Below, one piece after another: positions 1 through 3,000 of a stretch of 6,761 nucleotides of DNA. The stretch is from a bacterium (lineage in GTDB: Bacteria > Zhuqueibacterota > Zhuqueibacteria > Oceanimicrobiales > Oceanimicrobiaceae). Positions within the stretch are counted from its first letter, which is position 1. Every line of letters begins with the position of its first letter. The position numbers are program-made. The stretch is from NCBI GenBank assembly GCA_046757165.1, contig JBHHXT010000263.1:1-6761 (forward strand). The letters run 5' to 3'.

Positions 1-3000
1 AAGCCTGATCAATTACCTCTACAGTGTAAGTCAGGCTTCCAGCCTGAGCAAGTCCGACAGGCAGGATGCCTGTGATACACAAAAGGCTTCCAGCCTGAGC
101 AAGTCCGACAGGCAGGATGCCTGTGATACACAAAAGGCTTCCAGCCTGAGCAAGTCCGACAGGCAGGATGCCTGTGATACACAAAATACCCTGGATACAA
201 TCATGTATTTTGATCCAGATGCGCCAATTAGCAAAAAGCAACGAAATCTGCCTCACTGGCAGCAGAAAGGAACCGCCTATTTTGTCACGTTCCGGTTATT
301 CGATTCCATTCCAAAAGAAGTGGCTGAAAGTATTAAAAAGGAACGAGAGCAATGGTTAAAATCGAATAACATCTCAGATCCCTCGGAGCTGAAAAAACTG
401 AGGCGCGCCCAGAAAATCGAATATTACCGCCTCTTTTCCAAACGCTATGATGACTTGCTGGATAACGGCTATGGCTGCTGTGTATTGGCAAAACCCGAAT
501 GCAAGAAAATTGTAGAGGAGGCGCTCAAGCACTTTGATGGCGACCGTTACGATTTGGACAAGCATGTAGTCATGCCAAATCACGTGCACACAATCGTTCG
601 GCCCCAAAAAAACTGGGATTTGTCACAAATCACACACTCCTGGAAATCCTTCACATCAAACGAAATCAATAAGATTCTTGGCAGAAAAGGTCAACTATGG
701 ATGCCTGAGTCCTTTGACCATATCATTCGCAGCCCCATGCAACTGGAAAAAATTCGCCACTATATTGCTGACAATCCTAAGAAGTCCAAAGTAACTCAGG
801 CATCCCAGCCTGAGGAGCCGGAGTATTCTCAGTCTCAGTCTGAGCCTTTGCCAACAAGCCACAGGCAGGATGCCTGTGTTACGATAAGCAAAGAAGATAT
901 TGAAACCCTGATCAAATCCGGCGAGCAGGTTGGGGAACACGAAGCCGCGGTACGGGCCAAAGGTCGGGAAACGAAGGATTATTCGCACAAGCTCCCCGAA
1001 AGCATTCGGCAGAATGCCGCACGGATCGACCAGGCCCTGGCCAACATCACCGTCTGCGACCCGGCCATCGGCAGCGGCGCTTTTCCGGTGGGCATGATGC
1101 ATGAGATTGTCAAAACGCGCAATGTGCTGACCAATGTAATTGAGGCTTCCCAGCCTGAGAAGCCCCACAGGCAAGATGCCTGTGATCCGTTGGATGCCCG
1201 TGCTACCTACCAATTCAAACGCCAATGCATCGAAAAATCGCTCTACGGCGTGGACATCGACCCGGGCGCGGTGGAGATTGCCAAGCTGCGGCTCTGGCTG
1301 TCGCTGGTGGTGGATGAGGAGGACATCCGGCGAATCAAGCCCCTGCCGAATCTGGATTATAAGATTGTTTGTGGGAATTCGCTTTTGGGAGTGGAAAAGA
1401 ATTTGTTTAACAACCAATTATTTGTCGAGCTGGAACGCCTGAAACCCCTTTACTTCGACGAAACCAATCCCACCAAAAAGCTGGAATACAAACAGCAGAT
1501 TGATGACTTGATCGGTGAGATTGTAACTCAACCTTCCAGGTTGAAGGGGCGCCACAGGCCTCACAGGCAAGATGCCTGTGATGCTTTTGATTTTGAGATT
1601 TATTTTTCAGAGGTGTTTCATAAGAATGGCGGGTTTGATGTTGTGATTGGCAATCCACCGTACGTGCGCCAGGAAGAGATTCGCGAATACAAGTCGGCAT
1701 TCAAAAGCATCTACCAATGTTTTACGGGCATGACCGACATCTACGTCTACTTTTATGAGCGTGGCTTGAACCTGCTGCGCGAGAATGGTGTGCTGACGTT
1801 CATCACCTCGAACAAATACATGCGCGCAGGGTATGGGGAAAAACTCCGTCAGTTCTTGACCACCCGCGCGGCCATCCGGCAATTGATCGACTTTGGCGAC
1901 GCCCCGGTTTTTGAGGCCACGGCCTACCCCAGCATCATCCTTTTGCAAAAAATCAAACTCAATGACAACAGCATAATGGCCCTGAACTGGAAGAGAAACA
2001 CTCCCGTGGAAGAATTCGAGCAGGAGGTTCATACGGGCAGTTTTTTGATCGCCCAAAAAGAGCTGACTGCCGACGGCTGGCGTATCGAAAGCCCGGCAGT
2101 GCTACGGTTGCTCGAGAAGCTTCGCAAAGCCGGGCAGCCGCTGGGCGAATATGTGCAGGAACGGTTTTACCGGGGTGTGCTGACAGGCTTGAACGAGGCC
2201 TTTGTGGTGGATCGCGGCACCCGCGACCGGCTGATTGCCGAGCACCCGTCTTCGGCGGACGTGCTCAAACCCTTTCTGCGCGGCCGGGATGTGAAACGGT
2301 GGCGGGTGGATTTTTCGGAGCGATACTTGATTAAGATTGAATCCTCTGAAAACGAGACACATCCCTGGTCAAACAGAGAGCCAAAAGAAGCGGAACGGAT
2401 TTTTGCCAAAACCTATCAGGCAATTTACTCACATTTAATGCAGTTTAGGGGAAAACTGATTGCGCGGGATGATCAGGGAAAATATTTTTGGGAATTGAGA
2501 TCATGCAAATACTGGCAGGAGTTTGAGCAGCCGAAGATAGTTATTCCTGCTATCGACCAAAATGTCAATTACGCTATTGATTTATTGGGCTTTTATAGCA
2601 ATGATAAGACTTCCATCTGCGTTGGTGAGAATGTCAACTATCTGGCAGGGCTTCTCAATTCAAGATTGCTTTGGTGGCTTATTCGAATGATCGCCGCAGT
2701 CAGGCAGGGTGGTTTTTATGAATTCAAACCCATGTATGTTTCTCAAATTCCGATTGTTGCTGGCATAGCAACAAATCAAATTGAATCAATCGTTGATCGA
2801 GTTCTCACGGTCAAGTCTGATAATCCCGGCGCAGACGTTACCGGCCTTGAACGGGAGATCGACCAACTGGTCTATCAGCTCTACGGCCTGACCGCGGAGG
2901 AAATCGCCATTGTTGAAGGACAAAGTAATAGGGAAGCCTAAAAAGAATGGAAAAAGCATTGAACGTCATCAGCAATATGCACAAGGAAGGAGTGCTTAAG

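Follow-up and report, generated by a model that had tools for sequence, protein, structure and literature searches.

According to PMC5581495 and bioRxiv 2021.07.10.451892, RAYTs are sessile, extragenic, domesticated transposases, the use of which to the cell is unknown. TnpA-REP was described as a monomer (PMC3479197). The closest described systems are the REPtrons (E. coli, 4ER8; PMC3479197, PMC8266576, PMC5581495; bioRxiv 2021.07.10.451892). The element reported here has in common with them an HUH plus Y-x-x-x-NP core and a predicted 4ER8-like fold, as well as inverted dimers of footed hairpins and a single close copy per genome, with tens of REPs elsewhere. In contrast to REPtrons, it is intragenic, has no stop codon and changes its site and allele, the foot of its hairpins is mostly GTAA instead of GTAG, and its domain is predicted to contain a helical insert of about 65 aa after the first strand.

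In the classification of TnpA-Y1 proteins (Quentin et al. 2018, PMC6006769), the motifs NHVH, W[QM] and YIxxNP fit the rows of both subclasses 2.4 and 2.7. Subclass 2.7 (median 213) agrees with the free-standing relatives of about 200–260 aa, and subclass 2.4 has in-frame REPs inside its tnpA gene. Five REP 15-mers were absent from two supplementary text files of PMC6006769.

In the accessible portion of the study by Di Nocera (2013, PMC3733652), which deals with REPs inside genes and with Rickettsia palindromic elements, REP singles and dimers are also read in frame, and the peptide CHSRESGNP of a CGTC-1 repeat recurs in loop S2 of the ortholog L123. The repeats in that portion are short and non-coding, and no transposase domain travels along, unlike in the window cassette. 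Inteins with homing endonucleases and IStrons (PMC4227781) are likewise nuclease-bearing and reside in coding sequence at little cost. Unlike these, the cassette has neither a Hint domain nor a group I intron, and its junctions replace host codons; its harmlessness seems to come from the tolerance of the loop and not from splicing. A literature search, with subscription journals, REBASE, bioRxiv supplements and the supplementary figures of PMC6006769 (e.g. S1 and S10) outside its scope, yielded no description of embedded RAYTs.

A type IIG gene with an in-frame RAYT domain

The window, i.e. the whole stretch of 6,761 nucleotides that was analysed (contig C263), contains a single stop-free frame of 979 aa that is open at the contig start. 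By comparison with the ortholog L045, about 470 codons of the 5′ part of the gene were estimated to be absent from the assembly. The features are:

2–2941, plus strand: type IIG restriction-modification gene, 5′ part absent (Pfam, PADLOC, ortholog comparison)
2–25, plus strand: host sequence SLINYLYS, which runs into loop S1 (ortholog comparison)
26–180, no strand assigned: left REP array of three 51-nt (17-codon) head-to-head dimers (pattern search, folding); left REP on the plus strand with a GTAA foot at 26, in unit 1 only; right REP on the minus strand with GTAT feet at 78, 129 and 180
203–784, plus strand: RAYT / TnpA-Y1 class 2 domain without a stop of its own (Pfam, NCBIfam, structure model)
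578–589, plus strand: HUH motif NHVH, aa 193–196
761–778, plus strand: catalytic-tyrosine motif YIADNP (Y254)
791–882, no strand assigned: right REP dimer; left REP on the plus strand at 791–812, right REP on the minus strand at 861–882, both with GTAA feet
1055–1084, plus strand: methyltransferase motif I region CDPAIGSGAF, intact
1136–1185, no strand assigned: REP dimer in loop S2, which has 27 aa here and at most 13 aa in 56 of 74 distinct orthologs
1523–1584, no strand assigned: REP dimer in loop S3, which has 28 aa here and usually 13
1649–1663, plus strand: methyltransferase motif IV GNPPY, intact
2267–2755, plus strand: TaqI_C-like target-recognition region without REP (Pfam, REP family pattern)

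The initial annotation had placed a RAYT domain, with its HUH motif retained, in frame inside a type IIG gene cut by the contig start. All of this was borne out by the stop-free frame, by NHVH at nt 578 and by the Pfam matches to Eco57I (162.5 bits), TaqI_C (57.4 bits) and Y1_Tnp (33.9–36.8 bits, cut-off 23); MmeI_Mtase and N6_Mtase were also matched. The assignment to type IIG is based on the adenine methyltransferase motifs I and IV together with a target-recognition domain. The PADLOC profile REase_MTase_IIG PDLC03596 matched with an E value of 2e-159 (window aa 292–974 to profile positions 485–1145), and its positions 1–1145 are spanned by one frame in L045. The PDLC03596 type IIG enzymes encoded downstream of a PLD-SNF2 helicase have the same motifs I and IV, TaqI_C region and fold; the window gene differs by the RAYT cassette in S1 and the REP peptides in S2 and S3, and, unlike in the whole enzyme of that type, its nuclease end is absent from the assembly. 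The structure model of the host part has a CamA / M.BseCI / BpuSI-like fold (Z 28.8, 26.5 and 15.1, respectively). Its motif I region is of low confidence because the N-terminal half is missing, and therefore correct folding of the host around the insert is not demonstrated by the model. The dN/dS of the host core was 0.13 (versus L045). The N-terminal part of the IIG enzyme had no match elsewhere in the genome (G000). A search of the genome contigs for the helicase led to C467, where its start runs off the contig end; a match in C361 (E 2e-10) comprised two short stretches and did not lie in a frame of helicase length.

The RAYT domain looks intact in its sequence. The HUH motif is that of TnpA-Y1 class 2, and the tyrosine motif has the Y-x-x-x-NP form (PMC6006769); among the 122 top-scoring domain matches, HxH is kept in all and the tyrosine in 121. 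These catalytic residues are retained at an overall identity of about 50%. The family model NF047646 of NCBIfam scored 61.4 bits (E 9e-17), which is below its curated cut-off of 80. The domain does not show the marks of IS200/IS605 TnpA: the motif is YIADNP and not Y-x-x-x-Q, NF033573 reached 22.4 versus 55 bits, and there is a single copy instead of multiple near-identical ones. The initial annotation had given the domain about 230 aa; it is indeed present, but according to the model its folded part comprises only about 185–195 aa and the remainder is REP-coded linker, with a pLDDT of about 90 for the RAYT and below 50 for the linkers. The model could be superimposed on 4er8_A with Z 13.1 and rmsd 3.3 (123 aligned residues over model positions 82–266), the helix with the tyrosine included. 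Structures of the IS608 / IS200 family tie in Z (13.9–12.9), but their matches end at model positions 243–247. By PDB sequence search, 4ER8 was found with an E value of only 0.066.

An internal start at ATG 203, which would make the domain a separate gene, was rejected as the general route: of 15 close DNA loci, five have an Ile codon at this position, and no stop follows the domain. As both a stop and a conserved start are missing, the transposase could be produced only as a fusion with host sequence.

REP hairpins within and outside the gene

The REP dimers fold much better than shuffled sequences (z −3.6 to −5.3; none of 200 shuffles was equal), and the left REP of S3 has a compensatory stem (CAACC..GGTTG). 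The three tandem 51-nt units proposed upstream of the domain were found, starting at 33, 84 and 135, but only unit 1 has the full left hairpin with its foot; units 2 and 3 begin with AAGGC. The number of units is uncertain, as the unit contig had a depth of 30 (X1) and 80.7 (X3) versus about 19. Downstream of the domain and in the methyltransferase part, single hairpins had been proposed; these had to be corrected, as each is one half of a head-to-head dimer. The host sequence restarts with ISKEDIETL at 884, after the right REP dimer.

It had further been reported that six of the seven genomic copies of this hairpin lie in the one gene. With a 17-mer and at most one mismatch, seven genome matches were indeed obtained, six of them in C263 (57, 108, 159, 861, 1167 and 1563), but this pattern is narrow. 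The family pattern detected 60 copies genome-wide, versus 1, 1 and 2 in three shuffles, and only 10 of them lie in this gene; the REPs are thus enriched in the gene, but not confined to it. Of the other hairpin, exact copies are present on eight other contigs. A GTAA, GTAG or GTAT foot is present in 51 of the 60 REPs (36, 9 and 6, respectively), a fraction that is partly built into the pattern. As GTAA predominates, the feet are mostly not the published GT[AG]G. In L016, all nine REPs have one common stem variant.

With regard to the properties of canonical REPtrons, footed flanking REPs with copies elsewhere in the genome were thus found, and also a single close RAYT copy per genome (tblastn: one in G000, and one match each in G051, G052 and G067). 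A free-standing, extragenic gene was not found, the domain lying inside a 979-codon frame.

Occupancy of the loops in relatives

The initial annotation had listed 1437 proteins with the domain, internal in 115 of the best 120. These numbers could not be reproduced, but the trend agrees: the search for longer proteins gave 442 matches among 1570 candidates, and in the best 120 proteins 105 of 122 domain matches were internal. At the level of genome loci, 17 of 21 are embedded (two are free, one is a short N-terminal fusion and one is frameshifted), including 12 of the 13 closest ones (64–83% identity). Short or free-standing relatives are also common, as 78 of the best 150 representatives have less than 340 aa, some of them being fragments. 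Several restriction enzymes among the search matches are named only "transposase RayT". On plasmids, 1 of 72,556 records matched, with 33% identity.

That relatives carry the REP-RAYT unit in many hosts was confirmed. The suggested tie to defence genes is valid for the closest relatives, which are mostly IIG and SNF2-PLD proteins, but the same clade is also found in LeuRS, ValRS, CarB, MurC/Ddl, RecG, XseA, the CCA-adding enzyme and others. The inserted carB is the sole PF02787 match in both genomes tested, which are draft bins without a given completeness.

Loop S1 exists in three states: empty (e.g. L051 and L052), REP-only (L013, L045, L047 and L130) and REP-RAYT-REP (window, L005 and L016); in 79 of 88 orthologs it has no REP of this family. 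The upstream PLD-SNF2 helicase has one loop of the same kind. It comprises 12 aa in 47 of 49 host-selected loci with both flanks found, has only REPs in L016 and contains a RAYT in ten distinct loci. The occupancy is reciprocal in L016, L013 and L045, with the RAYT in one gene and only REPs in the other. Loop S2 is lengthened in 18 of 74 distinct cases, and in 16 of these the extra sequence does not belong to this REP family. In the host-selected sample, which is biased against S1-filled alleles and in which the distant-type RAYT beside L130 was not counted, a RAYT was found in 1 of 80 loci (L089) and at least two REPs in 2 of 80, a weak co-occurrence (Fisher p 0.025). At the junctions, host codons are missing from filled alleles, in numbers that differ between alleles. 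The helicase frame terminates early in L014, and the RAYT is frameshifted in L023. By comparison of the orthologs, the occupied loops are short in most of them, and REP dimers alone are also accepted there.

Tree and divergence analyses

In the RAYT tree, from which P0002, P0011, P0027, P0028, P0033, L021 and L022 were excluded, a single clade was rejected by the AU test for the helicase copies (p 0.010) and for the S1 copies (p 4e-5), while one origin of the S2 copies was not rejected (p 0.12). In the host tree, which comprises only 121 columns and leaves out the truncated L047, the nine REP-bearing S1 alleles among 88 need nine changes (AU p 1e-5). According to these trees, the same loops have been entered repeatedly, and there is movement among S1, S2 and the neighbouring helicase.

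Homing typically leaves an insert that is younger than the allele around it. In the six pairs of L011, L013, L014 and L015, compared at the helicase site, the RAYT had dS values of 0.12–0.23, versus 0.73–1.00 in the upstream and 0.48–0.88 in the downstream host sequence, and the synonymous identity was 89–93% in the insert versus 63–72% upstream (p <=2e-7). The insert is thus 2–8 times less diverged than both host flanks, although the pairs are not independent of one another. The opposite pattern was seen for L004 versus L010 and L014, which argues against a general rate effect. Judged by this divergence, the insert at the helicase site is younger than the host alleles, a homing-like signature. 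The raised identity extends about 25 codons to the left of the insert, and some host flanks are mosaic, e.g. L004/L007; ordinary recombination via REP and flank homology could produce the pattern without any RAYT action. The AU tests and the dS contrast do not agree with the fixed locus and vertical inheritance of canonical REPtrons.

The median dN/dS of the RAYT was 0.094 for the 39 unsaturated of 105 pairs (dS was saturated in the other 66). In young same-site pairs it was 0.18–0.37, versus 0.07–0.11 in the upstream host sequence, which may mean that the embedded domain is under weaker selection or is selected for its folding.

Assembly support

An artefact of assembly or binning caused by the repeats has a negligible probability. 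It is true that the contig begins 25 nt before the repeats and that the tandem copy number is uncertain. However, RAYT and host are bridged by separately assembled contigs of public runs from the same study, one of which spans 157–3200 (X1, a possible source sample) and one 157–1066 (X3), and therefore the fusion does not result from joining during assembly or binning. In addition, S1 is filled in L005, L016, P0004 and others. In the runs of the window, a helicase loop with REPs alone is seen from loose ends whose depth matches that of the window (20.8 vs. 19.3 and 20.6 vs. 19.2).

Discussion

The favoured explanation, with a probability of roughly two thirds, is that a mobile REP-RAYT-REP cassette survives by occupying surface loops that tolerate it, with the frame kept, and that it is translated along with the host protein as an unspliced passenger domain. 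For the defence enzyme there is probably no gain. We infer that the fused protein is made and that the cassette drives its own movement. The fused, monomeric HUH domain would bind the GTAA-footed hairpin on single-stranded DNA, nick it and perform strand transfer, which would seed REP dimers nearby. The cassette would then be moved or swapped between REP-marked loops and between alleles, and recombination would complete the event. If the guide model of PMC8266576 is applied to a GTAA foot, cleavage would be expected at TT or TA. Selection would purge frame-disrupting insertions and those in folded parts, which would explain why the same few loops are hit repeatedly. The host would provide promoter, start and stop, and the element would be sheltered.

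Several of the observations also fit a scenario in which only free-standing RAYTs are active, while embedded copies are tolerated accidents that are spread by homologous recombination of defence-island DNA and owe their conservation to folding or to time spent free. These are the dN/dS values of the young same-site pairs, the raised identity left of the insert and the mosaic flanks, the numerous short relatives, and the entry of unrelated palindrome families into the same loops. This scenario is nevertheless unlikely, as nearly all of the closest genome loci are embedded, no second close RAYT accompanies the 60 cognate REPs in the window genome, the catalytic residues have been retained despite considerable divergence, and moves between non-homologous loops require more than recombination of alleles. 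A role in defence, in which the HUH domain would aid the restriction enzyme or the helicase by nicking single-stranded phage DNA or by REP-mediated reshuffling of specificity, is very improbable. The closest relatives in IIG and SNF2-PLD genes and the purifying selection on the domain point in this direction, and TnpA-REP near lanthipeptide genes was suggested to have a diversifying role, a view that its authors then qualified (bioRxiv 2020.03.09.984088). However, S1 lacks this REP family in most orthologs and the domain is rare in the host-selected loci; its position varies between S1, S2 and the helicase; and the same clade is present in tRNA synthetases, CarB, MurC and others. An exchange of the specificity domain by means of REPs was rejected, because none flank the target-recognition region.

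The initial annotation had left open whether the insert is excised or merely tolerated; the evidence favours "tolerated and mobile" over "excised". Removal of the cassette before use, by excision from DNA or by RNA or protein splicing as in IStrons or inteins, with the open frame as a safety net, is accordingly given little credence. The inverted REP ends of the cassette can pair at long range in folding analyses, HUH enzymes excise single-stranded DNA (PMC6006769), and in the runs X2 and X4 a joint is present that skips 789 nt (263 codons). Yet this joint lies on a contig of about 90% identity and therefore represents another lineage and not an excision product, and REP-only alleles persist in frame. 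No high-identity excision joint was found in four contig sets from one study, in which contigs drop rare variants. As the junctions replace host codons, clean excision is unlikely, and, with the variable loss of these codons, removal could not restore the empty loop. At E <=1, the only Rfam match was a weak, unrelated one to SorX (19 vs. 46.6 bits), and none was to a group I intron. Neither Pfam nor NCBIfam gave a match to Hint or intein families at E <=0.01.

The mobile passenger cassette may be an example of something more general, which is put forward tentatively and with somewhat less than even odds: undescribed autonomous coding elements, in which HUH cassettes home intein-like and in frame into tolerant loops, are never spliced, act as a domain of any recipient protein, deposit REP dimers that serve as landing sites, and jump from one such site to another in neighbouring genes and between alleles in different phyla. 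If true, a RAYT would here be directly responsible for its own movement, and intragenic REP peptides would have one of their sources in such elements.

This RAYT clade departs from the sessile, extragenic picture of the family and offers a non-splicing way for a mobile element to live in coding sequence. Such fusions were discarded as errors in a family survey, and annotation is distorted by them. In a IIG enzyme, the loops represent natural sites that tolerate insertions. Taken together, one two-gene locus in which three loops occur in empty, REP-only and RAYT-filled form represents a ready set of donors and recipients, with which self-mobilization of a RAYT gene and the deposition of REPs could be tested.

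The IIG gene and its embedded transposase domain

The type IIG restriction-modification (IIG) gene was found to be a single frame of 979 codons that is open at its 5′ end (base 2) and terminates with a stop at 2941. It yielded Pfam matches to Eco57I, TaqI_C, MmeI_Mtase and N6_Mtase, and, at amino acids 165-257, to Y1_Tnp (33.9 bits). Amino acids 292-974 corresponded to positions 485-1145 of the PADLOC type IIG profile, methyltransferase motifs I and IV were unbroken, and the host enzyme presumably works. With NCBIfam the embedded REP-associated tyrosine transposase (RAYT) domain scored 61.4 bits for the RAYT model vs. 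22.4 bits for IS200, each below its cut-off. Public contigs (four runs of one study, DNA only) bridged the domain and the host sequence, and therefore the fusion is real DNA and the location of the RAYT within the IIG gene is a real feature. The features of the window are as follows.

2-2941 (+), IIG gene, 5′ part missing
26-180, REP dimers, three tandem units
203-784, RAYT domain
791-882, REP dimer
1136-1185, REP dimer
1523-1584, REP dimer
2947-3447 (+), 166-aa protein directly behind the IIG gene, weak nucleotidyltransferase match (DUF2204, 25.9 bits)
3444-3611 (+), 55-aa protein without family, overlapping the 166-aa protein
within 3644-6612 (-), DUF2062 protein
4240-4650 (-), 136-aa frame without Pfam match, resembling an amidohydrolase N-terminus
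within 3644-6612 (-), TPR protein
within 3644-6612 (-), phosphonate-type periplasmic binding protein
4746-4821, intergenic inverted repeat, 28-nt arms, 82% complementary, spaced by 20 nt

The 166-aa and 55-aa proteins could form a small toxin-antitoxin-like pair; PADLOC gave no match for the former at E 1e-10. In run X4 a 30-nt patch at 2158-2188, directly preceding the target-recognition region, was rich in substitutions and had a 1-nt insertion balanced by a 1-nt deletion, while the rest of the contig was near-identical.

In a structure model the RAYT domain was confident (pLDDT about 90) and the adjoining REP-coded linkers were of low confidence. The domain matched TnpA-REP 4ER8 (Z 13.1, rmsd 3.3, 123 residues) with the tyrosine helix included; IS200-family chains tied in Z, with that helix left out. 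TnpA-REP is described as a monomer and IS200 enzymes as obligatory dimers with a swapped tyrosine helix (PMC3479197), and by analogy a monomeric state would suit life as an inserted domain.

REP hairpins

The IIG gene contained six head-to-head REP dimers, and each of the four that were folded was better than 200/200 shuffles. In each intact half, a GTAA- or GTAT-type foot lay two bases 5′ of a short stem. According to the initial annotation, six of seven genomic hairpin copies lie in this gene; this holds for one 17-mer, while the REP family has 60 genome copies (1-2 in shuffles), ten of them within the gene. The stems co-varied: CAGGC/GCCTG, CAACC/GGTTG at 1529 of the window, CAAGC/GCTTG in 9/9 copies found in the relative locus L016, and CATGC/GCATG in L009. 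No second close RAYT was detected in the genome, which has two unrelated Y1 genes with Y-x-x-x-Q-x-x-HH motifs; one (C129:7035-7379) is bordered by its own long palindromes and the other (C221:8045-8272) has an internal stop. In the IIG gene of L005, REP-derived units were expanded in tandem over long in-frame stretches, with assembly gaps, at 4860-5240 and 6600-6890.

Allele states of the loops

The relatives were metagenome loci sampled by host likeness (the best 80 of 532) and several genome loci, and the allele states are established. Three loops of the IIG enzyme varied. S1, after SLINYL, was empty in most relatives, REP-only in L013, L045, L047 and L130, and filled with REP-RAYT-REP (the cassette) in the window, L005 and L016. 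Of 74 distinct S2 alleles, 56 had at most 13 aa and the remaining, longer 18 carried palindromes, which in 16 alleles were outside the cassette's REP family; one palindrome encoded a peptide listed for a CGTC-1 repeat. Close RAYTs occupied S2 in the proteins P0016 and P0020. A different RAYT, 37% identical, lay in S2 of L046 (5098-5830), a second lineage with its own REP stems. S3 had 28 aa in the window and 13 aa as a rule; an empty-S3 relative occurs in runs X1 and X2. Filled-loop junctions substituted for host codons and differed among alleles, and no target duplication was seen there in the alleles compared. At least six further palindrome types, judged by encoded peptides (including SLRGAQATKQS, PPLSRGDTGG, CHSRESGNP and NKGLQPL), enter S1 and S2 in frame (L053, L058, L086, L096, L098, L100, L116, L123).

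In relatives, the IIG gene has a PLD-SNF2 helicase gene upstream. The corresponding loop of the helicase had 12 aa in 47/49 host-selected loci, was REP-only in L016 and RAYT-filled in ten distinct loci. The two genes had reciprocal occupancy: in L016 the IIG gene carries the RAYT and the helicase carries REPs, and in L013 and L045 it is the other way round. Within the runs of the window itself, a REP-only array is joined at window depth by loose ends that read like helicase flanks, and the helicase start runs off the end of contig C467; therefore, judged by depth, the organism probably has the L016 arrangement.

Movement of the cassette

Movement of the cassette is established. In the RAYT tree (35 rows) helicase copies and S1 copies needed six changes each, and the AU test rejected one clade for both (p 0.010 and 4e-5), though not for S2 copies (p 0.12). 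In the host tree (88 rows, 121 columns) the nine alleles with the REP family at S1 needed nine changes, not below shuffled labels (AU p 1e-5). For six helicase-site pairs among L011, L013, L014 and L015, not independent of each other, RAYT dS was 0.12-0.23 vs. host dS of 0.73-1.00 upstream and 0.48-0.88 downstream, and synonymous identity was 89-93% vs. 63-72% upstream. Identity was also raised across 25 codons left of the insert. L004 compared with L010 and L014 showed the opposite pattern (54-58% against 74-77%). An insert younger than its flanks is the expected trace of homing with co-conversion; ordinary recombination could leave the same. Going by record titles, the 13 closest loci belong to several phyla.

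Discussion

By analogy with TnpA-REP, which is reported to cleave REP substrates in single-stranded form at dinucleotides chosen by the foot and to join strands (PMC8266576), the fused domain would be an active enzyme that nicks near its own hairpins, lays down REP dimers and moves the cassette itself. The cassette would be transcribed and translated together with its host. Two of three frames are open through the left REP, and also through the window's right REP over the stretch read, and therefore in-frame landings are not rare; selection would retain only those in tolerant loops, which unrelated repeats also occupy. The cassette would work like a REPtron, but it lacks the published marks of extragenic position and fixed locus (bioRxiv 2021.07.10.451892; PMC5581495). 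In-frame REPs inside tnpA are described by Quentin et al., who treated long proteins as fusions or errors and excluded them (PMC6006769), and Di Nocera et al. report intragenic REPs, with no transposase (PMC3733652). No account of embedded RAYTs was found in the literature searched, which leaves most subscription journals outside its coverage.

Conservation of the RAYT domain is established: the RAYT had a median dN/dS of 0.094 (39 unsaturated of 105 pairs), and 0.18-0.37 in the youngest same-site pairs, and the host core 0.13 vs. L045. Across 122 matches, drawn from the 120 best longer proteins and mostly at about 50% identity, HxH was kept in all and the tyrosine in 121. Alternatively, the cassette may be a passive passenger, which appears rather unlikely. 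Its removal by excision or splicing is improbable; it is neither an intein nor an IStron (cf. PMC4227781).

That the RAYT is a domesticated defence module is slightly less probable still, and the cassette is not specific to defence genes. Among the best 150 RAYT representatives 72 had at least 340 aa and 78 were shorter, and 52/65 long ones scanned had a second Pfam family. Hosts beyond restriction-modification include LeuRS, ValRS, AlaRS, CarB, MurC/Ddl, RecG, a DinG-type helicase, XseA, DprA, the CCA-adding enzyme, PdxA, HypF and others; in 2/2 draft genomes tested the inserted carB was the sole match to its oligomerisation domain. P0002 and P0011 have two RAYT copies each, one of these proteins being alanine-tRNA ligase-related. 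The close free-standing copy L009 (5325-5980, 72%, between two genes) has its ATG, and likely its ribosome site, outside the left REP, as if its start signals were taken from a host operon. Taken together, the best explanation, at a probability of roughly two in three, is a mobile in-frame cassette that is translated with its host, nicks and moves via its own REPs, and is kept in tolerant loops.
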